Shown piece by piece: positions 9,188-23,636 of a DNA stretch of 32,000 nt. Both the position numbers and the translations under genes were made by a program. Source of the stretch: Sneathiella marina (GTDB lineage: Bacteria > Pseudomonadota > Alphaproteobacteria > Sneathiellales > Sneathiellaceae); NCBI RefSeq assembly GCF_023746535.1, contig NZ_CP098747.1:656364-688363 (forward strand), written 5' to 3'. Positions within the stretch are counted from its first letter, which is position 1. Each line of letters opens with the position of its first letter. The notes below the pieces were generated by a model, which was not told the DNA's origin, ran no database searches, and was given only the letters and a program-made list of their open reading frames with translations.

Positions 9188-9190
9188 TTA

Positions 9191-10372
9191 CTATGGCTTC
9201 TCGTTTGAGGGGGAGCGTCGGAACGGTAATCTCTCAGCTTCTGAAAGACGTTCTTGAAGGGCGGATTCGCGTTTACGATTTAGGCCCATTTCCGCAATTT
9301 CGTTAAAGTCGGACTCATTAAACCACATGGCGTGGCGTGTCGGTTCCATAGGGATACCTCGTTCAGACTTATGGAGACCAGTTGTACCAAAGTTAATTAT
9401 GTTTTGATTAGTCGCAATCGCTTGTTCAATAGTTTGATATATTCCCATTTCGAAAAGGAGAAACGGAACACTGCCCGTATGCCCCCAATGTTGTGCAAAG
9501 CGTATGTCTGTAGTGAGTACATCCAGTCGGGCGGCAATCCAAGCCTCATCCTTAAGCGCAATAGTCATTTCCAATGAATCTTTCATGCATTCTAATACCA
9601 TCTCGAAATAATTTAAGTTGAGCCAAGGAGCAGTTGTATTTCGAACAAATGTCGATTTATATAATTCGTAAAATTTGGGTGCCAGATCAGGGCCTATCTC
9701 TTTTCCGGAAAATGACCTGAATTTTAGGCCAGATGCAGCCACTTTGCGGCGATCCGACAATAATTTAGACCGTTTTGAGCTTCGCATCTTGCCAATGAAA
9801 TCGTCAAAATTATTTATGCCATCCGCGTTCCAAACATAGGCATTTCCTTCGGTGGTGATAAATTCCGATTGTCTGACGCAATTTTCGTCTTCATTTGACA
9901 TATAGGAAAGTTGAACTGATGCAGCCCGGTATTTCGAAGCCTGCTTCTTGAGACGGTTCAATAGCTCTGCTCGGGCAGTGGTGGCCTCAACACCTTCCTT
10001 TATAAGTAAGCGTGATCCGGATATAGGCGTGAAGGGCACTTCGACTTGTAGTTTGGGGTAATAGGGGCCGATAGATCGTTCATGCGCCATCGCCAGGCCT
10101 ATATCGACGCCTAGCTCGCCGTGAGAATGAGTTTTGAGGTAAGCAGGAGCGGCGGCGACAATGTTGCCGCAATCATCCCTTAAAGCGATATGTCGCGGAC
10201 TGAATCCAGTATCAGGTGATACGACACCGCTTTCTTCTAAGGCACGCAAATGCTGATGTCTAACAAAAGGATCTTTTTTGCCGGCGCAATCATTCCAATC
10301 GGCTTCTGGAATGCCGGCAATGCTGGTATGGCAGGTTGCGCTCCACTTTCCTATGCGATCAGATAAATTCAT
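9191..10372 (-). CDS. FemAB-like / DUF482 (PF04339-like) GNAT-fold acyl/aminoacyl transferase
   Basis: ATG at 10372 overlaps the GGT stop (TGATG). The N-terminal signature IPEADWNDCAGKKDPFVRHQHLRALEESGVVSPDTGFSPRHIAL and the 393-aa length fit the family as I remember it. Confidence 0.65.
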   Translation of the reverse strand: MNLSDRIGKWSATCHTSIAGIPEADWNDCAGKKDPFVRHQHLRALEESGVVSPDTGFSPRHIALRDDCGNIVAAAPAYLKTHSHGELGVDIGLAMAHERSIGPYYPKLQVEVPFTPISGSRLLIKEGVEATTARAELLNRLKKQASKYRAASVQLSYMSNEDENCVRQSEFITTEGNAYVWNADGINNFDDFIGKMRSSKRSKLLSDRRKVAASGLKFRSFSGKEIGPDLAPKFYELYKSTFVRNTTAPWLNLNYFEMVLECMKDSLEMTIALKDEAWIAARLDVLTTDIRFAQHWGHTGSVPFLLFEMGIYQTIEQAIATNQNIINFGTTGLHKSERGIPMEPTRHAMWFNESDFNEIAEMGLNRKRESALQERLSEAERLPFRRSPSNEKP

Positions 10373-12111
10373 CAGCTGATCTTTTGTTGAGAGTTGATTT
10401 TCGTCTTCTGACCGCTATCCCGACGCGGATCCCCTATGGCCTCGTAGTGGCCTTCGCCAGAACCAACAATGCAGACGGATGGCCGATTGATGCCATGTGA
10501 TGTTTCACGAGTGATTTTGTGACCAATCTTTTCCAGATTGACAGCAACGGGTTCGGGAATGCCTTCTTCAATCACTATTTTACCCGCAAAAGAAAGATGA
10601 GGCTCGCTTGATCCAGGGGCAGAATGGGTGAAGACACGTGGTTCGCTTACCGCATCTGCTAAGGGCTGATCAAAGATAAAATGGTTCATCAAAATCTGAA
10701 CTGCGGTTTGTAGCTGCAAGTCTGCGCCAGGCCCCCCGCCCGCAATAAATCGACCTTCGCGGTTCCGGATAATAAACGGACATGCGCTAACGCGTGGCCG
10801 TTTTCCGGGATAAAGGCATGCAGGATGGTCATTTGTAACGTAACTTTGACCGCCTCGTGTCGAAATTACGAACCCAAGATTTGGGACGGCTGGGCCATCG
10901 AACGAACTATCGCTAGGAGTCGATGCAAAGATATTTCCGTGTTTGTCTGCAACTACTGCAATGGAAGTATCCAACGAAGGAGAGAATTCCGTACTCCTTC
11001 GGTTTGCTGAGATTTTTGGTTTTTCAAGCCCTGAGAAGCTTCCCGCCGATGGTAGGGCATCAAATGCATGGTCGGTCTGAATTTGATTGGCGCGTTCAGC
11101 GGCATATGCGGGCGACAGAAGATGATCGCTCGGTACGTTTACAAAATTCGGATCCCCATAATAGGCCTCACGATCCGCCATTGCGAGCTTTATTGCCTCC
11201 AAAAATACATGATGACGAGAGCAGTTGATCTCGGATGGGTTCTCTCGGTAAAAGTGCTCCAAAATCTGAAGCGACTGTGATAGCACCGGCCCTTGTGACC
11301 AAAACCCACAAGTAAAGGCGGTTCCACCAAAAACCGGAGACGCAGTCGCCGGAACAACCGGAGTCTTATGTAAGGCAAGGTCTGTATGTGTCATCAATCC
11401 ATCGTGCTTAACGATATGACGGATCATTTCATCTGCGATTTCACCTTTGTAAAATATGTCGCGAACTGCAGACAATCCTGCAATCCGGTCTTTCTTTGAA
11501 GCGGCCTTTCGATCTGTTTCGATCATGGCACCAAGTGTGTTGGCCAAACTTGGTTGAATAAATGTCTGCCCTAATTGAACTGGTTGTCCATTTGGCAGCC
11601 AAATGTTCGTATTCTCTTCGTAGCGGCGGTAATATCGCTCGAACTGTTTCGTACAATCTACAAGATCCTGATGTGCTGGAAATCCCTCTTTAGCGAGATT
11701 TCTGGCAGGTTCTGCGAGTTCGAAGAAGCTCATGCTCCCGAACTGTTCCAATGCCGTAATCCAGGCATCAGGGCCTGCTGGTGTAACGGTCCTTAAAATA
11801 CCTTGAGGAATTCTTCCGCGATATTTTTCCTCGAAATGCGTCCTTTCGACTGCATGTGGCCAACTTCCGGCCCCCTCAATTGAATAGGTTTGTTGGCTTT
11901 CTGCCAGATACACCAAGATTGGGGAAACACCACCAAGCTGTACTTGCTCGGAATGAAGAACGGTCAAGGCTATAGATGCTGCAACTCCTGCATCGACAGC
12001 ATTTCCACCGGCATCCAGCACATCAGCAGCAATCTCCGCGGCTCTATTATGTCCTACAGAAACAGCATAGGAAGTGCCTCTATCTGCATGTTGTATATTC
12101 ACGACGACCAA
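10372..12111 (-). CDS. Gamma-glutamyltranspeptidase-family Ntn hydrolase, no signal peptide
   Basis: Motifs are AADVLDAGGNAVDAGVAASIALTVLH, the nucleophile region LDTSIAVVADKHGNIF, and GGGPGADLQ near the C-terminus. The start is TTG at 12111 (alternative GTG at 12105). The N-terminus has no hydrophobic leader. Confidence 0.85.
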   Translation of the reverse strand: MVVVNIQHADRGTSYAVSVGHNRAAEIAADVLDAGGNAVDAGVAASIALTVLHSEQVQLGGVSPILVYLAESQQTYSIEGAGSWPHAVERTHFEEKYRGRIPQGILRTVTPAGPDAWITALEQFGSMSFFELAEPARNLAKEGFPAHQDLVDCTKQFERYYRRYEENTNIWLPNGQPVQLGQTFIQPSLANTLGAMIETDRKAASKKDRIAGLSAVRDIFYKGEIADEMIRHIVKHDGLMTHTDLALHKTPVVPATASPVFGGTAFTCGFWSQGPVLSQSLQILEHFYRENPSEINCSRHHVFLEAIKLAMADREAYYGDPNFVNVPSDHLLSPAYAAERANQIQTDHAFDALPSAGSFSGLEKPKISANRRSTEFSPSLDTSIAVVADKHGNIFASTPSDSSFDGPAVPNLGFVISTRGGQSYVTNDHPACLYPGKRPRVSACPFIIRNREGRFIAGGGPGADLQLQTAVQILMNHFIFDQPLADAVSEPRVFTHSAPGSSEPHLSFAGKIVIEEGIPEPVAVNLEKIGHKITRETSHGINRPSVCIVGSGEGHYEAIGDPRRDSGQKTKINSQQKIS

Positions 12112-12326
12112 CTCATTGAACGCGGCGTAAATCCAGCGCTTTATTGAACTAAGATAACAAATTTATATTATATAACTTTATGAGTTAATTTTTTATTTTA
12201 GCCATCAAGCCGCGATCAAAAGGTTTCATTCATTAAGTCCAGCTTTGAGAAGGCCGTCCAGAACAGCCTTGAAATCTGGACCGTGAATATATCCTCCATC
12301 TCGCGATCTTAAGGTTCTTCAAGAAC

Positions 12327-13235
12327 TTAAGGGCGTGAGGCCTGTACCTCCTGAAGCAGCCAGTCGCGAAAAGCCGCGACCTTGGGCTGATTGTCGCTAT
12401 CTTTCGCGCTTAGTAGATAATAGGAGAATTTGAGGGGCGTATTCAGGCTCGGGTTGAAAGGGCGCACGAGGCGACCAGAGGCGATGTCATCTGCCACCAG
12501 AATGTCGCCGATCAACGCCACGCCTTGACCATCTAGTGCGGCTTGCACCGCCATATTTTCCATAGTGAACCGTGGCCCGCGAGCAGGGTCAATGTCGTGC
12601 AAGCCAGCTGCGAGCATCCACATTCGCCAACTCGCCTCGGCATCTTTCCATTCAACATGTAGCAATGTGTGGTGGCGCAGATCGTCGGGCTGGACCAAGG
12701 GATGCTTTCCGCTTAAGAGGGCCGGGCTACAGACCGGCATGTTGACCTGATTGAACAGGTGGTCGATCCGCACTCCATTGTAGCCGCCAGGGCCATAACG
12801 CAGCGCCACGTCGACGTTGTCGCGCGCAAGATCAACCAGACGATCGGTCCCGTCGATGCGGATCTCGATGTCGGGGTGCCGACTACGGAAATGCTCGAGC
12901 CGAGGTACCAGCCACATGGCGCCAAATGAGGGATTGACGCTGATGGTCAACACCCCGCTCTCGCTGTGGGCACGTATTTGCTCGATACCCTGGGCTAGCT
13001 TGTCGAAGCCCTGGCTGAGAATTGGCAGGGCCGCCTGGCCGGCGTCAGTTAGGCGCAGCGCCCGGGTCAGACGTCGGAACAGGGGCACATTTAATAATTC
13101 CTCAAGTGATTTGACCTGATGACTGACTGCTCCTGGCGTGACGTTTAGCTCGGCTGCTGCCTTTGTGAAGCTAAGGTGCCGAGCGGCAGATTCAAAGGCC
13201 TTAATAGCGTTTAAGGGTGGGAGTGATCTGGGCAT
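12327..13235 (-). CDS. LysR-family transcriptional regulator (GcvA/AmpR-like subgroup)
   Basis: The N-terminal wHTH is LPPLNAIKAFESAARHLSFTKAAAELNVTPGAVSHQVKSLEE. Length is 302 aa. The gene is divergent from the DMT gene at 13531. Confidence 0.9.
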   Translation of the reverse strand: MPRSLPPLNAIKAFESAARHLSFTKAAAELNVTPGAVSHQVKSLEELLNVPLFRRLTRALRLTDAGQAALPILSQGFDKLAQGIEQIRAHSESGVLTISVNPSFGAMWLVPRLEHFRSRHPDIEIRIDGTDRLVDLARDNVDVALRYGPGGYNGVRIDHLFNQVNMPVCSPALLSGKHPLVQPDDLRHHTLLHVEWKDAEASWRMWMLAAGLHDIDPARGPRFTMENMAVQAALDGQGVALIGDILVADDIASGRLVRPFNPSLNTPLKFSYYLLSAKDSDNQPKVAAFRDWLLQEVQASRP

Positions 13236-13530
13236 TTCCTACACCTGAGTTTTTCTAATCTATCAGTGGAGATCTATTCGTTTGTCCAAAGCCATAATTC
13301 TGCATACATTTTGTGAAAATGCAAGGCCAGGTAGGTATTGATATCTGCTCTATGTTAGCGCGTATATGGCTTAATTTAATTAATTCATGAGCCAGCACTG
13401 AACGGTCATATCAAAACCTGATGGAAGGCCTGCAACTCTTTGTTATGAAGCTTCCAATCCCGGTGTCAGTTTTGCCGGGCTACAATCGAATGCCAGGGAT
13501 GATGCCCCTGATATCAACCGAAAATGCGAC

Positions 13531-14379
13531 ATGAAACAACATACTCAATCTGAATATTATATTGGTGTTTTCCTGGTTGTGGTTTCGGCCATAACATTTA
13601 GTACGGCGGGCTCATTCACGAAGGGAGTTGAAGCCGGGCCGTGGGAGGTTATATTTTGGAGAGGCTTTTTTGCAGCGGCTTTCACAACAATCTGGATAAT
13701 AAACAAGGGAACGCTGCGGCAGAATTTTTTTGGTATGGGTTACAGTGGGTTAGCGATAGCAGTAGTGGGGGCATTGGGTACGGCGGCATTTATCCAGTCA
13801 TTTAAACTTACATCCATAGCCAATGTTTCAGTTATTTACGCGGCTTCTCCACTTATTGCAGCCCTACTCGCTTGGTTTGTCATGGGAGAAAAAATATCAT
13901 CAAGGACGATGGCGGGGTGTGTTGGCGCGCTGTTGGGTGTTGCGATAATTGTTTCAGGTTCTCTTGGTCAAATTAGCCTCAATGGCGATTTGTTAGCCTT
14001 GTTGATGACCATTGCCATGGCCTTGATAATGGTTATTTATCGGAAATATCCAGGGACACCGGGGGCGGGCCCGGCAGTCCTTTCATCCATTCTCTTGCTG
14101 CCGTTTTCAGTGATATATGGAAATCCATTTGAGATTGAACGCACGGAAGTCTATGTCCTATCCGCATTCGGACTGCTATTTGCCATTGCATCCGTCACCC
14201 TGGCAGAAGGTGCCAAACGGGTACCATCAGGCCAGACGGCTCTTTTAAGTACATTGGAAACCCCTCTAGCTCCGGTTTTCGCATTCATCTTGTTTACGGA
14301 AATTCCAAATACTGCAACATTTCTTGGCGGTTCCGTAGTGCTTTTTGCGGTGCTTATCTCGATAAAAATAGATCCATAA
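13531..14379 (+). CDS. DMT/EamA-family transporter (10-TM type)
   Basis: 282 aa, hydrophobic throughout, with two EamA-like halves. ATG at 13531. Confidence 0.85.
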   Translation: MKQHTQSEYYIGVFLVVVSAITFSTAGSFTKGVEAGPWEVIFWRGFFAAAFTTIWIINKGTLRQNFFGMGYSGLAIAVVGALGTAAFIQSFKLTSIANVSVIYAASPLIAALLAWFVMGEKISSRTMAGCVGALLGVAIIVSGSLGQISLNGDLLALLMTIAMALIMVIYRKYPGTPGAGPAVLSSILLLPFSVIYGNPFEIERTEVYVLSAFGLLFAIASVTLAEGAKRVPSGQTALLSTLETPLAPVFAFILFTEIPNTATFLGGSVVLFAVLISIKIDP

Positions 14380-14520: not shown

Positions 14521-15381
14521 ATGGGCCCAACCTCAAACAGCTACATTTCGCAACGTATTAAGCTACATTATGTAGATTGGGGGAACCCGGAGGCACCGCC
14601 GCTATTACTAATACATGGGGGACGGGATCATTGTAGGAATTGGGATTGGATTGCTGAAGAATTACGTCATGACTGGCACGTTATCGCACCTGACTTACGT
14701 GGCCATGGTGACAGTGGGTGGTCTACCGATGGCAATTACAGCATTCAAAGCTATATCTATGACATTGCTCAGCTTATCCATCAAAAGGAATTGAGCCCGG
14801 TAAGCATTGTTTCCCATTCTATGGGTGGAAATATTGCGCTGCGTTATACAGGTCTTTATCCGGAAACTGTAAGAAAACTTGTTGCTATCGAGGGTCTTGG
14901 TGCCTCACCCAAGATGGTGAAAGAAGCTCAAGCCGTTCCTACTGCCCAACGTTGGCGCGACTGGATTGAAAAAAAGCGTGCAGCCAGTGCCCGCTCACAT
15001 CGTCGATATGAAACATTTGAAGATGCTTTGGCGCGCATGAAAGCTGAAAATGGCCATTTGTCGGACATGCAAGCCCTGCATCTTACCACCCATGCTGTGA
15101 ACCAAAATGAAGACGGTACTTTCAGCTGGAAATTTGACAACTATATGCGCGTTTGGGCGCCATTTGATATTGACCATGAAGAAACCCAGAAACTTTGGGG
15201 AGAAATATCCTGCCCAACGATGCTGTGTTACGGCAATGACAGTTGGGCGTCAAATCCGGCGGATGATGGGCGGTCAAAATATTTCAAAAATACTATCGTG
15301 AAGAACTATGAAAACGCTGGCCACTGGTTGCACCATGACCAGTTTGAGAAATTCATGACGGACTTGCGAGAGTTTTTATAA
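14521..15381 (+). CDS. Alpha/beta-fold hydrolase
   Basis: GGGAG RBS upstream. Motifs are the oxyanion HGGRDH, the nucleophile elbow SHSMGG and the C-terminal GHWLHHDQ (catalytic His). Confidence 0.85.
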   Translation: MGPTSNSYISQRIKLHYVDWGNPEAPPLLLIHGGRDHCRNWDWIAEELRHDWHVIAPDLRGHGDSGWSTDGNYSIQSYIYDIAQLIHQKELSPVSIVSHSMGGNIALRYTGLYPETVRKLVAIEGLGASPKMVKEAQAVPTAQRWRDWIEKKRAASARSHRRYETFEDALARMKAENGHLSDMQALHLTTHAVNQNEDGTFSWKFDNYMRVWAPFDIDHEETQKLWGEISCPTMLCYGNDSWASNPADDGRSKYFKNTIVKNYENAGHWLHHDQFEKFMTDLREFL

Positions 15382-15557
15382 TATGTATGAAAACGTGATG
15401 CTCAGGAAAAATAACGAACTACCAGTACACGGAATTTCAGTCTGCGTGGATTCACAAAGCTCCAAATGCAACTTACAGACAGAACAACAATTTTTAAAAT
15501 GCTTGTCGAGGCCGCGAGTCTCTGTATTCGATCTAAAATAAATTTCCGCCTAACTCT

Positions 15558-18320
15558 TCAATTTCGTTTCCAATTGGTGTGTTCAAAAATGCTTTTTTCA
15601 ACTGACCATTGCTCGACCAGATAATCTTTGAAACTTCCATTTTTTGAGACACCTTTCAGATCCAAAATACTATATTTTACTTCGCGATCTTCTGAAAAAA
15701 TTTCATCCAAAGACAAAATTCTTGGACATCCCCCTATCACTTCACATGCCATAGTGGCAACGTCTCCGCTGGTCGTCAAAGCATTTGAAGTATGGAGTTC
15801 TGGTTGATGAGCATCAACATTTTTAACTAAAAACAAGGCGTGGAAAAAGCCCGGCATTCTTCTACCTTCATACCCGATGCCAATTTGATCGACGAATGCC
15901 GGATCAAACATCGGATTGTCTACCCACCAACCATGGTCGGAGACGACTTGTATTTGCGTTGAATTGTATACTTTATCCGCTTTCATTCTTTCGAAAATTT
16001 TAGCTAATTGGAGAAGAGAATATGTTGCTTCAGCTTTGTAATCGCCTTTGCCTTTTTGACTGATGTTTCCTTCCTGATCAATAACGTTAGGACCATGAGG
16101 CACATGTAGATGTATAAAGTTTAGCGTTGGTTTTTCTGAAGTAGCTACTTCTTTTTCAGAGAGACTATCAAGCAATTTGATCATTTTCAGTTTAGAATTC
16201 GTTGATTCATCGTTGTGAGTTTTATCCAAGTAGGTGAAATAGAAATGTTCTCTGAAAAATAGCGGGAACGATTTTAAAATTGAAAACTTAATCAGTGATC
16301 TGATTACAAAATTATCGGCTTCCGGGTTGTTCGAATTTGCGTAGCCATTGCCATCAATCTTGTATATTGACGCGTCCTTATTAGAGATTTTGACATTAAA
16401 TTTTGGTTGTACAATATTGCTATTGTACCCTTTAGGCTTAAAAAGCTCAGGTAATACCAAATAAGAATCCGCTAGAGTATCAAGCATTCTGTCATTGCTT
16501 GAGGGTATTACATTTTCTATGTGAAAGCGATGTCCCCCAAAAATAGAGGGGAGTGAGCCGATTGTTCCTCCTGAATTTGCGACACTATTTTTGTACCAAG
16601 TAAAATCCTTGAACCCATTTCTGATTTTTCTATTTTCCTTCACAAGCTCCGGAAATAGACCACCTGAAAATCCGTCCAGGATAATTACAAGAACATTTTT
16701 TCCTGATTTTGAAAGAGTTAGATTGAAATCTCTGGCTTCTAGGTAAGAGCTTTCTGTTTGGTTATCCGTATTGCCTGCGTTTGCCACCAGTAAAGAAGCT
16801 GCACTTACAGAGATCGTCGCCAATGATGTTATGAACAATAATAGTAACAATGGAACGAAATAGGATTGCAGTTTATTGAAATTCTTCAAAAATAAGAGAA
16901 ACAATCCAACCAAGACGGTGAATTCCAAAATTGAATGAAAGGCACTGACATTGATAAGGTCTGGCTGATTAAATGTAAAATTGTCCAGTAGGCCGTAATT
17001 TAACCCAACAAGTTTAGAGTAGACAAAGAAAATGGTGCTTAAATATACTGAAAGTATCAAAATGGATTTTACGATATTTTCGGATGAAAACCTTAGTAAA
17101 ATATAGCCCAACATTATGGCTAGACAAAAAATTGTTATGTTAGCCAACAAAATAGTGAAATATTCAATTCCATAATACTCGCTGGGGTCAGATAAGTATA
17201 AATTCAAAGGGTTATCGAGAACGATAATAAAGATCAGAAGCGACAGGAACCCAAGAGAAACGAGACGTAATTTTGCTTGGCTATATGAAAGAGACGCCGT
17301 ATTTCCCAAAACACCAAAAAAGAGGGCAGCCTGTACACCTAAGACAAGAAAAGAAATATTTATAAACAGTAGTGAGGGAAGCCGGTATTGGTCGCTGATC
17401 TGACCAAAGGCCATTGCCACCTGAAGTAAGAACAAAACATAGAGAACAAATTTGGAAAGATAAGAAAAATTGTATGAAAATTTAACTGAGAAATAAAAGA
17501 GAATGATTTCTAACGAAATAATTAGAGCTACAATATTGCTGTTTTCATCGGCAATTTGAGTTGGCAAAAAATGGTCAATTAAGCAAAAGCTGATAACAAA
17601 AATACAAAGGGATACTGTGTATTTGTTGATAAGGAAGTCATAGATTTGACGTCTGGAAACAGTGGAGATAAGTAACACGCCCCTTTTATCAGCATTTCTC
17701 ATGATGATAATGTTTCTAAATAGAATAAAGGCGTTGCTTACTGTCCAGTATATTAGCAAAACAGATTTAGCGTTGTATAAAAGAACTAGAAATAGAAGGC
17801 TAACGCCAAAAGCTTGAATTAGATCGTTTTTTGTGAAATTCGGTGTTGTTAATGCAGCTGCCACATTTACAAATGTCATAATAAAAGGAAGTAAATTTCC
17901 TTGGCCTAAAATTAGATTGTCAGGGCCTCCCAGATTTTTAATAAAGATAAATTGTTCACCATTCAAAACATCAAGCTGTTCAAACATAAAATAGGTAAGA
18001 ACTAACAAGGGGAGCTGTATGAAAAGACCAAGCAGCTTTCTTACTGAGTATATTGGATGGTAACTGTAGCGATTATATAGATTATTTAATCTAGTGTGCT
18101 GTTCAGCGCCCTTACTTTCTTTTTTAATTCTTTCAACTTGAGGAGCTAAAACAGTTTGAAAACTGGTTTCTTTGTAAACTATTAAATTGGCCAATTTTGT
18201 TGGCTTTATCAGTAGCAAACTAACAAATAGAGACAGAAGTATGGTAGCGAGGCCATAGCTATGAACAATATTAGAGATGAAAAGAAATAAACTCTCGTAA
18301 TATGAAATAACAATATTCAA
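15558..18320 (-). CDS. 920-aa membrane fusion: YidC/Oxa1-like N-terminal domain + polytopic segment + C-terminal alkaline-phosphatase-superfamily (sulfatase/LtaS/EptA-like) phosphotransferase domain
   Basis: TTG start at 18320 has AAGGT about 10 nt upstream. Residues 1 to ~210 show YidC/Oxa1 hallmarks: GLATILLSLFVSLLLIKP; LNNLYNRYSYHPIYS..LLGLFIQLPLLVLTYF; LLIYWTVSNAFILFRN. By eye there are about 14 hydrophobic segments in total. The C-terminal ~375 aa carry VLVIILDG (Asp codon 16674-16676), SGGTIGSLPS (candidate Thr nucleophile, codon 16563-16565), HLHVPHGP and VVSDHGWW. Confidence 0.7.
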   Translation of the reverse strand: MNIVISYYESLFLFISNIVHSYGLATILLSLFVSLLLIKPTKLANLIVYKETSFQTVLAPQVERIKKESKGAEQHTRLNNLYNRYSYHPIYSVRKLLGLFIQLPLLVLTYFMFEQLDVLNGEQFIFIKNLGGPDNLILGQGNLLPFIMTFVNVAAALTTPNFTKNDLIQAFGVSLLFLVLLYNAKSVLLIYWTVSNAFILFRNIIIMRNADKRGVLLISTVSRRQIYDFLINKYTVSLCIFVISFCLIDHFLPTQIADENSNIVALIISLEIILFYFSVKFSYNFSYLSKFVLYVLFLLQVAMAFGQISDQYRLPSLLFINISFLVLGVQAALFFGVLGNTASLSYSQAKLRLVSLGFLSLLIFIIVLDNPLNLYLSDPSEYYGIEYFTILLANITIFCLAIMLGYILLRFSSENIVKSILILSVYLSTIFFVYSKLVGLNYGLLDNFTFNQPDLINVSAFHSILEFTVLVGLFLLFLKNFNKLQSYFVPLLLLLFITSLATISVSAASLLVANAGNTDNQTESSYLEARDFNLTLSKSGKNVLVIILDGFSGGLFPELVKENRKIRNGFKDFTWYKNSVANSGGTIGSLPSIFGGHRFHIENVIPSSNDRMLDTLADSYLVLPELFKPKGYNSNIVQPKFNVKISNKDASIYKIDGNGYANSNNPEADNFVIRSLIKFSILKSFPLFFREHFYFTYLDKTHNDESTNSKLKMIKLLDSLSEKEVATSEKPTLNFIHLHVPHGPNVIDQEGNISQKGKGDYKAEATYSLLQLAKIFERMKADKVYNSTQIQVVSDHGWWVDNPMFDPAFVDQIGIGYEGRRMPGFFHALFLVKNVDAHQPELHTSNALTTSGDVATMACEVIGGCPRILSLDEIFSEDREVKYSILDLKGVSKNGSFKDYLVEQWSVEKSIFEHTNWKRN

Positions 18321-18351
18321 AGCTAATTACCTTATGAAGGCTAGTAAGTGA

Positions 18352-19632
18352 CTATTTCTGCACCAAATCTGGTAGATACTGAATTATACTTGGAGAGGAG
18401 TTCCCAAAATTTGTGACACAGCGGTCCCTGAAAGACGAGATGTTTTTTGAAGATTGCTGCTCTAGTACAGATTTGATAATTTCTCCTAATTTCCCAATCT
18501 CATTGGGCGCAATTGATACACCAATCTGTGATGCCGCTTCATCATCCCAGAACTCATCCAGATCTTCCGCCTCAAAGCCGACCAGGTCTTTTGCCGAAAT
18601 TTGTAATGAAATTACTGGTTTCTCATAAATAAATGCGAAATCAAAGCGTATAGAGGAAGTGTCTGAAATCAAAATATCAGAAATACTCATTGAGTAATTT
18701 GGAGAGATTTCATCATCCCATTTGAAATTGTCAAAGGTTTCCAGTTCTTTTTTGCATTGATCGATAAATTCGGGTTCAGCTATTCTCGAATGAGGATGAG
18801 GGCGAACGATGACATTATACCCCTGTTCAAGTAGAGCTTTTATAAAAGAAATTCCGTACGCTTTTAGGCAGCCCTTAGGCCCCCAAGAAGAGCCAATGAG
18901 GATCGTTGTTTTATCTTGCTTAAGAACGGAAGGATTGCGGTTTTTATACAGTTCATCCAGGTATGGTAGACCGAGGGATATCAATCTTTTTGGCTTCAGA
19001 TTCCGTCTTTTTTCAATACTTCGAATTGATTTTTCCTGGAAAGGGCCAGCCATGATAACGGTATCATATTTATCTAAAGAGAATTTTTTATATGTCGATA
19101 TATCTCCAACATGGTGAAAAATATGAACCAAATTTCCAACCATATTGGATTTTTTCAAAAAATAATTCTTGGCGCCGATGTTTGGAGAGGTGGAAACCAT
19201 GACAGGCGCTTCTATGTGAGACAATTCCTTTAGCCCGAAAATAGACCTGCTACATCTCTTGGAGTTCATGTAAGGGCTTTCGATTTCTAATGCCGGATCA
19301 AACAGATCCAATGTCCTGTAACGGAAATAAATTTTTCGGCTTATTAGTTCTTCAACAATTGGGCGAAATGTTCCCCAATAAGCGCGCCCTTCGCTAAACA
19401 GAACAAGAGTATTCTTGGGCGAGTGCGTGTCCTGTGCATCATCTTTTAATCCTGCTATGCGGTAAAAGAAGGTCTTAATGGTATACCATACTGCGCCCAA
19501 TGCCGCGAACAGGACTCCAACCAGCGCACTCCCGGAACCTGGGTCCAAATATGCGTAAGCAGGCTTGGAATATAAAACCAAACAACCGATGAAAAAAAGA
19601 TCAACGAGCACCCTTTTAGTCGTACCTAACAT
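18352..19632 (-). CDS. Membrane-anchored TagB/TagF-like (Glyphos_transf-like) phosphotransferase
   Basis: ATG at 19632 overlaps the upstream stop by 7 nt. The N-terminus has hydrophobic anchors (VLVDLFFIGCLVLY; ALVGVLFAALGAVWY). The C-terminal half carries motifs reminiscent of CDP-glycerol glycerophosphotransferases: ILIGSSWGP, VIVRPHPHS, ILISDTSSIRFDFAFIYEKPVI. Confidence 0.55.
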   Translation of the reverse strand: MLGTTKRVLVDLFFIGCLVLYSKPAYAYLDPGSGSALVGVLFAALGAVWYTIKTFFYRIAGLKDDAQDTHSPKNTLVLFSEGRAYWGTFRPIVEELISRKIYFRYRTLDLFDPALEIESPYMNSKRCSRSIFGLKELSHIEAPVMVSTSPNIGAKNYFLKKSNMVGNLVHIFHHVGDISTYKKFSLDKYDTVIMAGPFQEKSIRSIEKRRNLKPKRLISLGLPYLDELYKNRNPSVLKQDKTTILIGSSWGPKGCLKAYGISFIKALLEQGYNVIVRPHPHSRIAEPEFIDQCKKELETFDNFKWDDEISPNYSMSISDILISDTSSIRFDFAFIYEKPVISLQISAKDLVGFEAEDLDEFWDDEAASQIGVSIAPNEIGKLGEIIKSVLEQQSSKNISSFRDRCVTNFGNSSPSIIQYLPDLVQK

Positions 19633-20765
19633 AGAGCCCTCAATGTTTTGCGTATCATTTCAGGTGTTAGCTGAATTGGGTGATTACTCAGACGTTCAAC
19701 ATTAACTTGCTCAATAATTCTATCAATTACTTTGCTCGAATTCACTTTGGTTGTATCTAGCTTGATTGAAAGGCCGCAGGCTTTCATAATTGCATACCAG
19801 CGATCTTTAGCTGCGGTTGCATTTTTTACGTTTAGCAATACGTAAAGGTCTCTCATCGTTTTGGCGAAGCTCGATGGGGTTACATTATGATTATAGCCTT
19901 GGATGTTTTCTTGTGCATGCAGTTCAAAGAACAATCCCAATGTGATAGCGGCAGCATGACCATGGGGTAAGCCAAATTCCTTAGTAATTCCGTATGACAG
20001 AGCATGTGGCGCCGTCGTTTTACTTATGTTAATTGCTTTGCCAGCTAAATGGGCAGCTTGAACCACTGATGTTCTTTTTTCTTTGTGGCCCATTGAAACA
20101 GCTTCTGTCAGGTCCTTTATGAGTATCTTTATGGCTTGCGAGGCGTAAAGTTTACTTTCCGATGTTGCATTGGCTGACCAGTAAGACTCCACGGCCTGGC
20201 ATAAAGCGTCAAACCCGGTACAGGCGGATATGTATTGCGGCAGGTTATCCACGAAGCAGGCATCCACAATAGAAACATCTGGCATCAATTGATCGGATGC
20301 CAAGGAATATTTGACGCCATCAACATATATAACGGCAAAATGTGTAGCCTCGCTCCCTGTACCGCAAGTTGTGGGTATTGCAATAAGAGGGCATAGCTCA
20401 TTGGAAACTTTGTCTTTTCCAGTTGCGATTTCTTTTTCTCGACCAGAATGCGCCTGAATTGCATTTATTGTCTTCGCAATATCAATAGCGCTTCCCCCAC
20501 CAACAGCTATGATCAAATCATACTTCTTAGCCTTAAATTCAACTGCTCCTTTTATAGCCTGGTCGAGAGTGGGGTTTGATGTGTAGTCGTTAAAATAAAA
20601 TACTTTGCGATCTTTAAGTGCGGTATCTAGCAACTGCTTTGCGCCACTGTCGTGGAAAGACTTTTTACCTGTCACCAGAAATATATTTTTGCTGCCTAGC
20701 CGTTCAATTTCTAGTGATAAATTTGCGATGGCTCCTCGGCCTATATGTTCTGTGCTATATTTCAT
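19626..20765 (-). CDS. Iron-containing (group III) alcohol dehydrogenase; by context a phosphonoacetaldehyde reductase making 2-hydroxyethylphosphonate
   Basis: Fe-ADH motifs are AVGGGSAIDIAK and HALSYGIT...PHGHAA. The ATGA overlap with the phosphonopyruvate decarboxylase gene implies translational coupling. The context matches the PhpC/FomC-type step. Confidence 0.7.
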   Translation of the reverse strand: MKYSTEHIGRGAIANLSLEIERLGSKNIFLVTGKKSFHDSGAKQLLDTALKDRKVFYFNDYTSNPTLDQAIKGAVEFKAKKYDLIIAVGGGSAIDIAKTINAIQAHSGREKEIATGKDKVSNELCPLIAIPTTCGTGSEATHFAVIYVDGVKYSLASDQLMPDVSIVDACFVDNLPQYISACTGFDALCQAVESYWSANATSESKLYASQAIKILIKDLTEAVSMGHKEKRTSVVQAAHLAGKAINISKTTAPHALSYGITKEFGLPHGHAAAITLGLFFELHAQENIQGYNHNVTPSSFAKTMRDLYVLLNVKNATAAKDRWYAIMKACGLSIKLDTTKVNSSKVIDRIIEQVNVERLSNHPIQLTPEMIRKTLRALC

Positions 20766-21892
20766 GAGGACTGAATGAACCTCATGAAATTTTCTTTATT
20801 CTGTGTGGGTGAAATTGTCGGGCGGCCAAGATCCTTACGATTGCCGGTTTTGATTTTTACTTCAAGCAAAGCGGGCCCATCTGAACTTAGGAATTCTTTC
20901 AACGACTGTTCAAGGTCCTCGGCATTGTCGACGACATCTGAACGTATATATCCACAGCTTTTTGCAATTTCGCTCAACGAAACGGTAAAGCCAACAGTTG
21001 GCTGGCCCCCCACTGAATCATGCGCGCCATTGTTGAGGATTATATGTTTAAAGTTATGGCATTTACTTGAACCTATAATTGCCATTGAACCTAAATGCAT
21101 TAACGCAGCCCCATCTCCATCCAGGCAAATGACACGACGGTCAGGCTTCTGCATTGAAATGCCAAGTGCTATTTGGGAAGTATGCCCCATTCCCCCTACT
21201 GTCAGAAAATCACGTTGATGTCCTTGATCGCAATGCGCCCTATATTCGAAAAGCTCTCTTGATGCCATGCCAGTTGTCGCGACAATGATATCGTCAGTTG
21301 AAGTGCAATCAATAATTCTTTGTATGCCTTCTTCTCTTGAGAGAGGTAAGCTGCTTGCTTCTTTTTCTGGTTGGAGGTAGGGGGCAAACGATCCTTTTTT
21401 TGCAACCAGTGCGACAGGGAAGTTGTTTTCCCGAGCACTTAAAACCGCTGACTGCAGTGATTGCAGGTCATCTTCTTCCTCGCCAGACAGGACCCAGTAT
21501 GGAATTTCCATAGCGTCAAGCTTTTCTAGCAATACTCGTCCTTGTTTCACATGTTGGGGTTCATCCGGAACTCCTGGCTCTCCTCTCCAGCCTATGAGGA
21601 GTAGCATGGGGATAGAGTAGACATCACTATCAGCAAGTGACATCAAAGGGTTAATCGCATTACCCAGTCCAGAATTTTGAAAATAAACCAGTGGAATTTT
21701 GCCCGTAGATAAATGATATCCGATAGCTAACCCAACCGCAGCACCTTCGTTAGATGCAATGACATGATTTTTTTCGGTTGTATTGTCGGTCACGTAAGCA
21801 CAGAAAGATTTAAGTAAAGAATCTGGAACGCCTGTAAAAAAATCAATATCGGTATCTTTTAACGTTCCGAAAAATACATTTGGTCTAGTCAC
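20762..21892 (-). CDS. ppd: Phosphonopyruvate decarboxylase (ThDP-dependent)
   Basis: GTG start at 21892. The N-terminus FFGTLKDTDIDFFTGVPDSLLKSF is typical of Ppd/AepY. The ThDP motif is LDGDGAALMHLGSMAIIGS...ILNNGAHDSVGGQ. Length is 376 aa and the gene lies directly downstream of pepM. Confidence 0.85.
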   Translation of the reverse strand: MTRPNVFFGTLKDTDIDFFTGVPDSLLKSFCAYVTDNTTEKNHVIASNEGAAVGLAIGYHLSTGKIPLVYFQNSGLGNAINPLMSLADSDVYSIPMLLLIGWRGEPGVPDEPQHVKQGRVLLEKLDAMEIPYWVLSGEEEDDLQSLQSAVLSARENNFPVALVAKKGSFAPYLQPEKEASSLPLSREEGIQRIIDCTSTDDIIVATTGMASRELFEYRAHCDQGHQRDFLTVGGMGHTSQIALGISMQKPDRRVICLDGDGAALMHLGSMAIIGSSKCHNFKHIILNNGAHDSVGGQPTVGFTVSLSEIAKSCGYIRSDVVDNAEDLEQSLKEFLSSDGPALLEVKIKTGNRKDLGRPTISPTQNKENFMRFIQSS

Positions 21893-21925
21893 AACACAAC
21901 CTATCTTAAATTTGGTTTTACGGAA

Positions 21926-23224
21926 TTACCTTGTTCCAGGGATTAGGTCCAAGATATCCTTTATGTTCATGCATTTGTCGGATGTTTCCAAAGAACGTCC
22001 ATGCTTTAAGATGGAATAGGCTACTTCTCTCATGGAAGGGAAGGATGCTCTTAGAAGATGGTTTGCATAAATTACTACATTTACGCCAGCCTCCGCTAAT
22101 TCTGTGTCCGTAATGCTATTGTAACTTGTTGGTACCGCAACCAATGGGACCCGGTTCTCAATTTGATTATATTTATTGCAAAAAGCAAAAACTTCATCGG
22201 GTGTTTTTTGTCTACTATGAATCATAATCCCGTCGGCGCCCGCCTCAATATACGCTTTGGCTCTTGTCAGGGCATCATCCATTCCTTTTTCAAGAATTAA
22301 GCTTTCGATGCGGGCAATGATCATAAATTCATCTGTAACTTGTGAATTTTTGCCAACTTTTATTTTATGGCAGAAATTTTCAATTGAATCTTGGTGCTGA
22401 GCGACTTCGTTTCCAAACAAGGAGTTCTTCTTTAACCCGGTTTTATCTTCAATAATGACAGCTGAAACTCCGACTCTTTCCAGGTTCTTGACGGTAAAAG
22501 AAAAATGTTCGGGTATTCCACCGGTATCAGCATCAAAAATCATTGGTTTTGTGGTTACTTCAAATGTTTCGTTGATGTTTTGTAACCGTGTAGTTAAGTC
22601 CAGTGCTTCAATGTCTGGTTTTCCTTTAATGGTCGAGTCTGTCAAGCTACTAGACCACATGGCATCAAACTCAACCGAGGTGCCATTGTTTTCTGCTTCT
22701 GCATGTTCAATAATAAGGCCGCAAAGTGGAGAATGTGCTTCTAAGACACGTACAATTTGCTTTGCATTTATCAAGCGGCGCAATCGTTTCATACGAACAT
22801 CGGGAGTCGTGCCGATTTCCTTGATACTACCATGTATCTGGGTTGACGAAATTCCCGGTGTGTATGCTACTTCAATTAGTTCACCGCCCCATTCAGAAAT
22901 TGTATTGATAACTTGAGAGCGGGTTTTTGCTTGTACGCCTGTTTTCCAGTCATCACCGTGAACCACAAAATCAGGTCTCAGATTTTTCAGGTTGGGACGG
23001 TAGTCGAGAGTTTCTTGAGGAACAACTTCGGAAACATGTTGTATATTTTCGACGACCGTCTTTCTTTGATCATAAGTCAGGTACGGGAGGCGTTTATAGC
23101 TTGCAATGGCGCTGTCAGTGAGTACTCCTACAATGACCTTTCCATATTTCGAGGCTTCCTGAAGGATGTTTATGTGTCCTGGATGTAATAGGTCTGCGCT
23201 CATTCCTACATATACAGTCTTCAA
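21926..23224 (-). CDS. pepM: Bifunctional cytidylyltransferase::phosphoenolpyruvate mutase (Fom1-like architecture)
   Basis: TTG start at 23224 has AGGGGG 5-6 nt upstream. The N-terminal ~135 aa form a TagD-type nucleotidyltransferase: [16 protein letters not shown] (HPGH at 23174-23185) and [10 protein letters not shown]. The C-terminal ~290 aa form the PEP mutase, with the diagnostic [10 protein letters not shown] at 22421-22450. Confidence 0.9.
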
Positions 23225-23555: not shown

Positions 23556-23606
23556 ATTAGCTTTGACTTAGCTCTCCGATCTTGCAGTATTTGCGGAAAA
23601 TTAGTG

Positions 23607-23636
23607 TCCGGGGGTGGTACCGAACCACCGACCGGA
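23607..23636 (-). terminator. Candidate intrinsic terminator downstream of the aldehyde dehydrogenase / ABC operon
   Basis: The minus strand reads TCCGG-TC-GGTGG-TTCGGTA-CCACC-C-CCGGA, a two-tier GC-rich stem. It is followed by CACTAATTTTCC, with the T-run 6 nt after the stem, so it is imperfect. It lies 53 nt downstream of the stop at 23689. Confidence 0.35.

Follow-up and report, generated by a model that had tools for sequence, protein, structure and literature searches.

Related systems

Fom1 of the Streptomyces fosfomycin pathway is a fusion of a PF01467 cytidylyltransferase (CyTase) to PEP mutase (PepM). Together with PhpC/FomC-type reductases, enzymes of this kind lead from PEP to phosphonopyruvate, phosphonoacetaldehyde, 2-hydroxyethylphosphonate (HEP), and CMP-HEP. 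The HEP-cytidylyltransferase activity of Fom1 has been described, and fosfomycin biosynthesis starts with a Fom1-type CyTase::PepM and an Fe-ADH (PMC6697681). CMP-HEP is then methylated, and the product is released as an antibiotic.

In the Lic pathway (LicA-LicC-LicD) and the Pnt pathway (PntC for AEP), a small head group, either phosphoryl or phosphonyl, is cytidylylated and then transferred to a cell-surface molecule. Rice et al. in 2019 reportedly described the Pnt transfer steps as enigmatic. Also, Yu et al. in 2014 reportedly found HEP-containing phosphonoglycans in Glycomyces sp. and Stackebrandtia nassauensis. The early genes in these Actinobacteria are pepM, ppd, and an Fe-ADH, and HEP is a surface decoration on an extracellular polysaccharide, which is similar to the role that we propose below for a locus from Sneathiella, which is not an actinobacterium. 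An earlier, sequence-only reading of that locus had named HEP exopolysaccharides from Stigmatella and Glycomyces; Glycomyces is right, but the title of the paper names Stackebrandtia nassauensis rather than Stigmatella.

Two groups of membrane enzymes are also similar. TagF, TagB, TarF, TarL, and TagF-like capsule polymerases have a GT-B fold (PF04464) with CDP-binding motifs and are associated with the cytoplasmic face of the membrane. LtaS, EptA/MCR-1, OpgB, OpgE, BcsG, GacH, and PbgA/YejM begin with a polytopic membrane part and continue into an extracytoplasmic alkaline-phosphatase (AP)-type domain, which has a metal site and uses Thr as the nucleophile. Their head groups come from outer-leaflet lipids. 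Membrane-anchored transferases of the AP superfamily move phospholipid head groups onto periplasmic acceptors (bioRxiv 10.64898/2026.09.23.753746).

A five-gene cassette in Sneathiella marina

We analyzed a window of 32,000 nucleotides from Sneathiella marina, a marine alphaproteobacterium. Positions 15558-23224 contain five intact, closely packed ORFs, all on the minus strand. The ORF listing agrees exactly with the genes and junctions given in the sequence-only reading: from gene 1 to gene 5, the ORF coordinates give a 33-nt gap, a 4-nt overlap, a 7-nt overlap, and a 31-nt gap.

21926-23224, minus strand: gene 1, 432 aa
20762-21892, minus strand: gene 2, 376 aa, phosphonopyruvate decarboxylase (Ppd; GTG start; TIGR03297; NCBI name)
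19626-20765, minus strand: gene 3, 379 aa, group III Fe-ADH (PF00465 + PF25137; NCBI name phosphonoacetaldehyde reductase)
18352-19632, minus strand: gene 4, 426 aa
15558-18320, minus strand: gene 5, 920 aa
23225-23688, minus strand: upstream intergenic region, presumed to hold the cassette's promoter (terminator-like hairpin at 23606-23625)

The domain models that had been forecast were all recovered above their gathering scores: PF01467 and PF13714 in gene 1, PF02775/PF02776 in gene 2, PF00465 in gene 3, PF04464 in gene 4, and PF02096 and PF00884 in gene 5. As had been noted, the ORFs and the domain search reveal no glycosyltransferase, aminotransferase, or lipid-synthesis gene in the operon.

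The terminator-like hairpin comes after an unrelated aldehyde dehydrogenase gene, upstream of the cassette. (We considered PhnAcAld_DH for this gene, but the score of 293 bits is below that model's cutoff of 636, and the gene encodes a generic aldehyde dehydrogenase.) Sigma-70-like matches in the intergenic region were no more common than in shuffled sequence.

A survey of gene neighborhoods, as the sequence-only reading had proposed, found the identical five-gene set at 9 unrelated loci, in several gene orders (Victivallales, Lentisphaerae, Cloacimonadota, Alphaproteobacteria, Akkermansia, Oscillospiraceae, and others). Because the same set recurs in unrelated loci, the grouping is beyond chance. 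The cassette has an atypical GC content, as an acquired cluster would, and the HEP version of the cassette was probably acquired horizontally by S. marina. We found no conserved acceptor gene in the flanks, which fits the proposal of a self-contained module. We lean towards the view that the five genes work as a self-contained unit, which would make HEP, activate it, and install it on the cell envelope by a relay between the products of genes 4 and 5.

Probable synthesis of CMP-HEP

Gene 1 begins with TTG, preceded by the ribosome-binding site AGGGGG, and encodes two domains:

22805-23224, minus strand: N-terminal CyTase domain, residues 1-140 (PF01467, E 2e-15; HPGH, GISST)
21926-22792, minus strand: PepM domain, residues 145-432 (TIGR02320; [10 protein letters not shown])

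All three motifs that had been pointed out are present in the translation. The resemblance to Fom1 is borne out: phmmer matches the CyTase domain to the crystal structure of the Fom1 CyTase (5X3D) with E 1e-60. The two domains are 67% identical (90/135), which is not proof of specificity for HEP, since AEP-type loci also hold PF01467 CyTase::PepM fusions of similar sequence. The second domain scores 423 bits against TIGR02320 (equivalog cutoff 320), and all of the PepM catalytic residues are kept (D58, D85, D87, E114, K120, N122, S123, R159, and H190, by alignment to Mytilus PepM, 1M1B). We rejected phosphonopyruvate hydrolase, whose model scores 160 against a cutoff of 374.

Gene 2 scores 505 bits against the Ppd equivalog TIGR03297 (cutoff 313). 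Gene 3 keeps the GGGS NAD motif and the ligands D189, H260, and H274, and it has Q193 where a metal-binding His is usual. It scores far below the cutoff of TIGR03405, the sole phosphonate-linked equivalog for Fe-ADHs (170 vs. 424). Homologs of gene 3 adjoin PepM and Ppd in 12 loci that hold genes 4 and 5. Gene 3 is probably a phosphonoacetaldehyde reductase that forms HEP.

Following the established enzymology of these families, gene 1 would use its PepM domain to convert PEP to phosphonopyruvate, gene 2 would decarboxylate this to phosphonoacetaldehyde, gene 3 would reduce that to HEP, and the Fom1-like domain of gene 1 would combine HEP with CTP to form CMP-HEP. Judging from the sequences, CMP-HEP is very probably the product that is handed to the membrane enzymes; this is well supported because of the identity to the Fom1 CyTase, the full set of PepM catalytic residues, and the lack of an aminotransferase.

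CMP-HEP could instead be transient, as in fosfomycin biosynthesis, which opens with the same kinds of enzymes (PMC6697681). The cassette would then yield a soluble phosphonate natural product, with the membrane proteins acting in export or self-resistance. The atypical GC content would also fit such a cluster. But the cassette lacks tailoring genes of any kind (methyltransferase, epoxidase, ATP-grasp, NRPS, or others). Instead, it encodes two transferase-type membrane proteins, and these recur with cell-surface-type supply modules (see below), so we consider a soluble product very improbable.

Gene 4 is a TagF-like transferase

19456-19632, minus strand: N-terminal membrane hairpin (signal-peptide-like helix, AYA/YLDPGSGS loop, TM helix at residues 34-55)
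18352-19407, minus strand: cytoplasmic TagF-like GT-B phosphotransferase domain (PF04464, AF2 model, Foldseek)

Pfam, sequence matches, and Foldseek agree on the families that had been assigned to genes 4 and 5. Gene 4 scores 35.3 bits against PF04464 (gathering score 22.1). Foldseek ranks TagF (3L7K, E 6e-12) as the best match of its AF2 model (pLDDT 88, pTM 0.78) and places two TagF-like capsule polymerases, 8QOY and 8A0C, next. The HP and SDxSS nucleotide-binding motifs of gene 4 align to TarL (8VA1). Unlike TagF, to which it is just 18% identical, gene 4 does not reach the equivalog models. It is also distinguished from the TagF and TarL types by its hairpin, whose helices are present in the AF2 model and in computed hydropathy. 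In the family alignment, residues A27, Y28, L29, D30, P31, and G34 of the loop are nearly invariant. Its donor is presumably a CMP-phosphonate, instead of the CDP-glycerol of the teichoic-acid enzymes. Gene 4 would take the hydroxyethylphosphonyl group of CMP-HEP, with release of CMP, and place it on a carrier or acceptor embedded in the inner leaflet, most likely a lipid.

Gene 5 joins a YidC-like domain to an AP-type domain

17676-18320, minus strand: YidC-like five-helix domain, residues 1-215 (PF02096; groove arginine replaced by Ser34)
16731-17675, minus strand: polytopic middle, about 9 TM helices, residues 216-530 (nine hydrophobic segments)
15558-16730, minus strand: periplasmic AP-superfamily domain, residues 531-920 (PF00884; D549, T586, H742, D795-H796)

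The YidC-like domain scores 56.9 bits against PF02096 (gathering score 35), aligns to Bacillus halodurans YidC2 (3WO6/3WO7, E 1e-9), and is modeled with a pLDDT of about 85. The groove arginine of YidC (R72 in B. halodurans, R366 in E. coli) aligns to S34, and across 149 family members this column is N, S, T, or Q, never R or K. The structure model of the middle region has low confidence; a profile match to YejM/PbgA spans both the TM and AP regions, and the distribution of K and R over the TM segments predicts that the AP domain is periplasmic. By sequence, that domain matches LtaS (2W5Q, 6e-8) and YejM (7e-8); by Foldseek, it matches PbgA, LtaS, and sulfatases.

The gene 5 family has 3,908 cluster representatives at E<=1e-30; each of the top 150 is a full-length protein. 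Across 149 relatives of just 22-29% identity, D549, T586, H742, D795, and H796 are 100% conserved. A C/S-x-P-x-R motif is lacking. On these residues, gene 5 has a metal site and a Thr nucleophile of the LtaS/EptA type, not the sulfatase type. In some relatives, from Akkermansia, no profile match to the AP domain was detected. Unlike the LtaS/EptA group, which have 5 to 11 TM helices, gene 5 has about 14 and a fused YidC-like domain. Also, a dedicated cytoplasmic partner would make its donor, in place of bulk PE or PG.

Because its AP-type domain is predicted to be periplasmic, gene 5 would act on a downstream intermediate, and CMP-HEP would be usable only by gene 4. The sequence-only reading had CMP-HEP delivered to both membrane proteins; the delivery is supported, but genes 4 and 5 would act in series, not as parallel recipients. 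The arginine-less groove domain of gene 5 would carry the head group to the outer face, as a scramblase might. (In vitro, E. coli YidC has lipid scramblase activity; PMC11047089.) The AP-type domain would then take the group on Thr586 at the metal site and hand it to a putative pre-existing envelope acceptor, by the logic that LtaS, EptA, OpgB, BcsG, and GacH apply to phospholipid head groups. The relay role of the YidC-like domain is conjecture: it could instead dock the hairpin of gene 4 or insert gene 5's own helices.

Alternatively, a phosphonolipid might be the end product: gene 4 would make a hydroxyethylphosphonyl lipid (for instance from diacylglycerol) as a membrane constituent, and gene 5 would remodel it or distribute it between leaflets or membranes. 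Gene 4 is membrane-anchored, there are no glycan genes nearby, gene 5 is similar to PbgA/YejM (an AP-superfamily membrane protein that handles lipids), YidC scrambles lipids (PMC11047089), and sulfatase-rich pepM clusters from Selenomonas were labeled “phosphonolipid” groups in earlier surveys (PMC8942020). However, full conservation of the metal site and Thr nucleophile in such divergent proteins points to catalyzed transfer, as in LtaS and EptA, and not merely transport, so we think a phosphonolipid end product is unlikely. Its first step is the same as in the envelope relay, and only the fate of the lipid differs.

A conserved gene 4/5 pair beside exchangeable supply modules

We found no published description of the gene 4/5 pair in the literature. 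In a scan of GTDB species genomes that was anchored on gene 4, 66 loci have a gene-5-like ORF next to gene 4 in the same orientation, and three more are truncated by the contig start, giving 69 of the 72 determinable loci; gene 4 lacks gene 5 at L056, L057, and L080. The pair spans many phyla, and the stop and start codons of the two genes often overlap. This near-obligate adjacency and frequent overlap suggest that genes 4 and 5 have one coupled function.

That coupling bears on whether the final acceptor (such as an undecaprenyl-linked glycan or lipid A-core) receives its decoration straight from gene 4 at the cytoplasmic face, followed by housekeeping export, with a separate role for gene 5 in second-site transfer, trimming, or stabilizing gene 4. 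There is cytoplasmic precedent: TagB/TarB-type primases and LicD use lipid-linked precursors there. One pair adjoins lptFG, lptB, lptC, and lpxL (L010), one gene 5 relative lies in a glycosyltransferase-rich locus (L003), and OpgB redistributes phosphoglycerol in the periplasm (bioRxiv 10.64898/2026.09.23.753746). Given the evidence for one coupled function and the lack of recurrent glycan or LPS genes in the flanks, we regard direct decoration as improbable.

Besides the HEP set (PepM, Ppd, and Fe-ADH), the supply modules beside the pair include LicC::choline kinase, AEP aminotransferase fusions, and an AEP ABC permease (importer) with a small CyTase. LicC::choline-kinase and PntC-type modules adjoin the pair elsewhere, although the Sneathiella cassette has no LicD-family transferase and has the TagF-like enzyme and the YidC::AP-superfamily protein in that place. 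Another module comprises a Gln-kinase-like protein (PRK05849), a GATase resembling gamma-glutamyl-CDP-amidate hydrolase (129 bits, below the equivalog cutoff of 250), and an NTP transferase. This trio adjoins the pair in Colwellia, Vibrio, Alteromonadaceae, and others, and is absent from the Sneathiella cassette. A similar trio belongs to the O-methyl phosphoramidate pathway of Campylobacter jejuni (Cj1415-Cj1418; transferases Cj1421/Cj1422), a CDP-phosphoramidate pathway (PMC11800397). In a quick neighbor-joining tree of gene 4, without support values, the module types are interspersed and the Sneathiella protein is sister to the phosphoramidate-module clade.

These modules also bear on the suggestion that HEP is polymerized. 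Gene 4 would then be a TagF-type polymerase that builds a teichoic-acid-like poly(hydroxyethylphosphonate) chain from CMP-HEP, with the hydroxyl of HEP as the next acceptor, and gene 5 would export or anchor the polymer. In structure, gene 4 is indeed closest to polymerases (TagF 3L7K and Cps3D-type capsule polymerases), HEP has a free hydroxyl, and the operon lacks a glycosyltransferase. But pairs whose gene 4 is 40-59% identical serve modules that are expected to supply donors of the CDP-choline and CDP-amidate types, whose head groups have no extendable hydroxyl. Because the pair is common to modules with such non-polymerizable head groups, transfer of a single head group is favored. The placement of the Sneathiella protein in the quick tree and the size of gene 4 (merely 426 aa, without an extra polymer-binding domain) also argue against a polymer. 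Of the two fates for HEP in the sequence-only reading, attachment to an envelope acceptor is supported, while polymerization is doubtful here and unlikely as the general chemistry of the family. Gene 4 is probably a single-transfer enzyme, and genes 4 and 5 likely attach the head group to the cell envelope.

We infer that genes 4 and 5 are a conserved and widespread general “chassis” that works with several different supply modules of the CDP-X or CMP-X kind. The pair may also install phosphoramidate from a CDP-amidate donor.

Genes 1 to 3: predicted synthesis and activation of 2-hydroxyethylphosphonate

The sequence-only reading described a compact cassette of five genes on the minus strand, and intact open reading frames match its coordinates exactly:

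21926-23224, minus strand: gene 1, cytidylyltransferase fused to PEP mutase (CyTase::PepM), intact
20762-21892, minus strand: gene 2, phosphonopyruvate decarboxylase (Ppd), intact
19626-20765, minus strand: gene 3, Fe-ADH-type reductase, intact
18352-19632, minus strand: gene 4, TagF-like transferase, intact
15558-18320, minus strand: gene 5, YidC-like::polytopic::alkaline phosphatase (AP)-superfamily protein, intact

Genes 1 and 2 are separated by 33 nt, genes 2 and 3 overlap by 4 nt, genes 3 and 4 overlap by 7 nt, and genes 4 and 5 are 31 nt apart. The window is part of the chromosome of Sneathiella marina (Alphaproteobacteria, Sneathiellales). NCBI records are 100% identical to each of the five proteins, each of which is a singleton at 90% identity. 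The family models predicted for the five proteins were each matched in profile searches.

Gene 1 matches PF01467 and PF13714. It scores 423 bits against the PEP mutase model TIGR02320, above the equivalog cutoff of 319.55, and it fails the model for phosphonopyruvate hydrolase (TIGR02321; 160 vs. 374 bits). The protein carries the EDKxxxxxNS motif region, [10 protein letters not shown], and alignment to the Mytilus enzyme shows the mutase-type N-S instead of the hydrolase-type T-S. A gene 1 without PepM catalytic residues would have undermined the initial reading. In an alignment to 1M1B, all of these residues are kept: D58, D85, D87, E114, K120, N122, S123, R159, and H190 (Mytilus numbering).

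The N-terminal PF01467 domain of gene 1 spans residues 9-130, has HxGH and ISST motifs, and is fused to PepM. This domain is 67% identical to the cytidylyltransferase crystal structure of Fom1 (5X3D; E = 1e-60), which is the enzyme shown to make CMP-2-hydroxyethylphosphonate (CMP-HEP) (PMC6697681). Similar CyTase::PepM fusions are also present in loci that appear to make the aminoethyl counterpart (AEP), so sequence alone does not settle the substrate of the CyTase domain. Such fusions account for ~24% of PepM proteins, and HEP-type neighborhoods for ~8.5% (PMC6697681, PMC8942020).

Gene 2 has both TPP domains (PF02776 and PF02775) and scores 505 bits against phosphonopyruvate decarboxylase (TIGR03297; equivalog cutoff 312.5). 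Gene 3 matches PF00465 and PF25137 and is named phosphonoacetaldehyde reductase by the NCBI pipeline; its score against TIGR03405 (170 bits) is below the cutoff of 424. It keeps the GGGS NAD motif and the metal ligands D189, H260, and H274, with Q193 (window 20187-20189, in a DALxQ motif) in place of the usual metal-binding histidine of group III Fe-ADHs. Glutamine is found at this position in 9 of 12 counterparts from other HEP-type loci, and the other three have histidine.

Because there is no aminotransferase in the cassette, pathway logic predicts the route PEP to phosphonopyruvate to phosphonoacetaldehyde to HEP to CMP-HEP, with CMP-HEP as the predicted choice of activated product. There is strong support that the cassette encodes the HEP enzymes and a Fom1-like activating domain. 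Genes 1-3 are already correctly named in public annotation, and the early pathway is known from Fom1 and from PhpC/FomC.

Gene 4 is a TagF-like membrane-anchored protein

Gene 4 scores 35.3 bits against PF04464 (gathering score 22.1). Its predicted structure is confident (pLDDT 88, pTM 0.78) and has a GT-B fold. The best match from Foldseek is TagF (3L7K; E = 6e-12), followed by TagF-like capsule polymerases, and TarL has counterparts of its HP and SDxSS motifs at the aligned positions. Against the characterized TarF equivalog NF041712, gene 4 is below the cutoff (19.5 vs. 550 bits). The protein starts with a helix resembling a signal peptide, followed by an AYA/YLDPGSGS loop that is nearly invariant and then a single transmembrane helix. 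The evidence strongly supports a TagF-fold, CDP-binding enzyme that is anchored to the membrane and faces the cytoplasm.

Gene 5 joins a YidC-like domain to a predicted periplasmic phosphotransferase

Public databases label gene 5 merely as a “YidC/Oxa1 insertase.” It has three parts: a YidC-like domain of five helices, about nine further transmembrane helices, and an AP-superfamily domain. The first part scores 56.9 bits against PF02096 (threshold 35) and aligns to YidC2 (3WO6/3WO7; E = 1e-9) and to E. coli YidC; against TIGR03592, gene 5 is below the cutoff (54.9 vs. 84.3 bits). The groove arginine of YidC (R72 in Bh, R366 in Ec) is aligned to Ser34. We aligned gene 5 with 148 full-length relatives (22-29% identical to gene 5), and across these 149 members the groove column is N, S, T, or Q and never R or K. 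Judging from this column, the N-terminal domain is not an ordinary YidC. We also rejected a role for gene 5 as the housekeeping YidC, given that the domain is part of a fusion, lacks the groove arginine, and is encoded within this operon.

The C-terminal domain matches PF00884 and is related, by sequence and structure matches, to LtaS and YejM/PbgA. D549, T586, H742, D795, and H796 are 100% conserved in the family alignment, and in the predicted model, T586 precedes a helix (586-595). We considered whether gene 5 might be a type I sulfatase and rejected this: the C/S-x-P-x-R formylglycine motif is absent (the sequence is GGT586-IGS-LPSI), and the column of Ser589 is G, A, or S across the family, without a following arginine. 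Since the invariant site residues are kept and the formylglycine position is not conserved, this domain is of the Thr-nucleophile phosphotransferase type, not a sulfatase, and is predicted to be active.

Hydropathy and charge distribution predict a topology of 5 + 9 transmembrane helices with the AP domain outside. The AP domain is thus predicted to be periplasmic, in which case it would have no direct access to CMP-HEP. As in LtaS- and EptA-type enzymes, a polytopic part is followed by a (predicted) extracytoplasmic domain that holds the metal ligands and the threonine nucleophile. By analogy, we infer that the donor for gene 5 may be a lipid-linked head group. Overall, a catalytically intact AP-type domain that is predicted to face the periplasm is strongly supported.

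Genes 4 and 5 form a widespread pair

We first saw the pattern in the neighborhoods of gene 5 relatives. One distant metagenomic locus (L005) contains the same five genes in a different order, and at other loci the gene 4/gene 5 pair lies beside different genes. An exhaustive profile search found 3,908 representatives of the gene 5 family (E ≤ 1e-30), and the best 150 of these are all full length. A word-indexed protein search gave 20 relatives, which is a large undercount.

We also scanned for gene 4, using one genome per GTDB species. From the 153 relatives found, we retained 78 loci and assigned their neighbors with profiles built from our own alignments. A gene 5-like ORF is adjacent and on the same strand in 66 of the 78 loci. 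In three more, the adjacent ORF is truncated by the contig start; in six, the contig end hides the position; and gene 5 is truly absent from just three (two Treponemataceae and one Holosporales). These results strongly support functional coupling of genes 4 and 5. The pair is found in Gammaproteobacteria, Alphaproteobacteria, Bdellovibrionota, Verrucomicrobiota (Akkermansia), Lentisphaerota, Cloacimonadota, Negativicutes, Desulfovibrio (including D. piger ATCC 29098), Elusimicrobiota, Planctomycetota, Synergistota, and some Clostridia.

Split and duplicated forms of gene 5 also occur (L029 11203-20625; L083 11185-14022; L037, L048, and L054). L029 has a stand-alone YidC-like ORF of 254 amino acids after gene 4, with two AP-domain proteins 4.5 kb away; L083 has an in-frame stop between the two parts; and in three loci, two paralogs of gene 5 flank a single gene 4. 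In MAGs of Akkermansia sp. (L028, L036, L041, and L066), the gene 5 relatives have ~800 amino acids and a clear YidC-like domain, and the AP-domain profile had no match in their C-terminal part, which may be highly diverged or replaced.

The pair adjoins at least five kinds of supply module

Supply modules (adjoining genes for an activated head group) found beside the gene 4/gene 5 pair
Module 1: CyTase::PepM, Ppd, and Fe-ADH, as in the window; full five-gene set in 9 loci
Module 2: PepM and Ppd with AEP-aminotransferase fusions
Module 3: LicC::choline-kinase fusions
Module 4: PRK05849 PPDK-like kinase, GATase (best match gamma-glutamyl-CDP-amidate hydrolase), and NTP transferase
Module 5: AEP-type ABC permease and small TagD-like cytidylyltransferase

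The neighborhood survey suggested by the sequence-only reading thus found the five-gene set in nine loci, and the Fe-ADH module has one gene missing or cut off in three further loci (L015, L041, and L080). All five types converge on a donor of the cytidine-diphospho-X type. In a neighbor-joining tree of gene 4 (without support values), the module types are interspersed, and gene 4 from the window is sister to a clade with the phosphoramidate module. The AP domains of gene 5 do not group by head-group type either: the closest to the window's are from AEP-type loci, and those of other HEP-type loci are distant.

The sequence-only reading had called the module self-contained. Among 123 flanking ORFs, which gave 180 Pfam families, no family was in more than 5 loci, and there was no recurrent acceptor-related family. 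The flanks thus lack a conserved acceptor-related gene, and the unit behaves as self-contained.

In Campylobacter, a trio like module 4 leads to a CDP-phosphoramidate donor (PMC11800397). Phosphoramidate surface decoration was said to be unique to that genus. The trio lies by the pair in Colwellia psychrerythraea (L001/L042, 4261-12415) and also in L011, L012, L013 (Vibrio sp. HN007), L019, L029, and L076, which hints at phosphoramidate decoration outside of Campylobacter.

In Desulfovibrio from the gut, and in other gut bacteria, LicC::choline-kinase fusions are immediate neighbors of the pair (L082, D. piger ATCC 29098, 8331-13849; also L007, L009, L059, L062, L065, and L088). This gene content suggests a LicD-independent route to phosphocholine-type decoration. 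In the strict sense, the Lic/Pnt pathway uses a LicD-family phosphotransferase; in contrast, none of the five Sneathiella proteins has a LicD-type Pfam match.

Four loci, L044 (3031-11239), L052, L064, and L067, combine the pair with a small TagD-like cytidylyltransferase and an AEP-type ABC permease in fused form (TIGR03262, PhnU2). These look like scavenging versions, with the head group imported rather than made. Three loci from Cloacimonadota (L033, L034, and L084) have a four-gene version (CyTase::PepM, Ppd, gene 4, and gene 5), with no reductase or aminotransferase nearby.

A proposed relay to the cell envelope

We propose that gene 4, working from the cytoplasmic side, would take the hydroxyethylphosphonyl group of CMP-HEP and load it onto a carrier in the membrane. 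Gene 5 would then move the carrier-borne group to the outer leaflet, form a phosphonyl intermediate on Thr586, and pass the group to an envelope acceptor. Membrane-anchored AP-superfamily enzymes carry phospholipid head groups to periplasmic acceptors (bioRxiv 10.64898/2026.09.23.753746), and YidC scrambles lipids in vitro (PMC11047089). Alternatively, the YidC-like domain might instead dock the procoat-like hairpin of gene 4. We lean slightly towards the relay as a whole, with far greater confidence in its CMP-HEP steps than in those assigned to gene 5. The earlier idea that CMP-HEP is delivered to membrane transferases is supported, but the two proteins would act in series, not in parallel, with the AP domain in the periplasm.

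The earlier reading also allowed for polymerization of HEP. The modules beside the pair include those for choline-type and phosphoramidate head groups, which cannot be extended; this argues for a single transfer as the family's general chemistry and makes polymerization unlikely.

A broader proposal, which we offer tentatively and consider rather doubtful as a whole, is that genes 4 and 5 are an unrecognized and very widespread two-protein machine that could use any CDP-X or CMP-X donor to fix small phosphoryl, phosphonyl, or phosphoramidyl head groups to bacterial envelopes. The arginine-less YidC-like domain would carry the lipid-linked group, or dock the hairpin, in the service of the periplasmic Thr-nucleophile transferase, and the Sneathiella version would make HEP esters on envelope polymers.

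The step that follows cytidylyl activation, in which a phosphonate is joined to the cell surface, has been described as enigmatic (Rice et al. 2019), and the cassette offers concrete candidates for the attachment enzymes. It belongs to nucleotide-activated head-group decoration, with transfer machinery that is potentially of a new type. A full-text literature search found no description of the TagF-like and YidC::AP pair or of its link to phosphonates, though most subscription journals were outside its reach and a prior description is possible. The supplements of the Horsman papers contain no Pfam tables naming PF04464, PF02096, or PF00884. A paper on Shewanella vesicles that matched the search concerns an ordinary OpgE.

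The pair is not an oddity of one genome: it spans many phyla, including gut Desulfovibrio, Akkermansia, Negativicutes, and marine Gammaproteobacteria. Given at least five supply routes beside it, one solved system should explain many, and the five-gene unit is small, portable, and within reach of heterologous expression. If the proposal is correct, the fused YidC-like domain would be the first insertase fold recruited to a small-molecule transfer pathway. The phosphonates in marine dissolved organic phosphorus are mainly esters of HEP and methylphosphonate, and these fuel aerobic methane production. A marine bacterium with a predicted dedicated unit for installing HEP bears directly on the origin of these HEP esters; if the proposal holds, the Sneathiella version is a candidate biological source of those that dominate the high-molecular-weight fraction.

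Genomic setting of the cassette

The G+C content of the cassette (window 15000-23000) is 34-43%, as compared to 45-50% in the flanks, and the nearest sequences to gene 4 are gammaproteobacterial (59% identity). Together, these suggest that the cassette was acquired horizontally. Within the window, no tRNA gene, flanking repeat, or integrase marks its edges.

A promoter scan of the window gave matches no better than those in shuffled sequence. The TTG start of gene 1 is preceded by a good ribosome-binding site, and a terminator-like hairpin lies between the cassette and the upstream aldehyde dehydrogenase gene. (We considered whether this aldehyde dehydrogenase is of the PhnY type, but it is a generic enzyme.) The window also contains a second tight run of four minus-strand genes with lower G+C (6556-12111; 43-45%), which encode a gamma-glutamyltranspeptidase, a FemAB-like protein, a thioesterase, and an AMP-binding enzyme.
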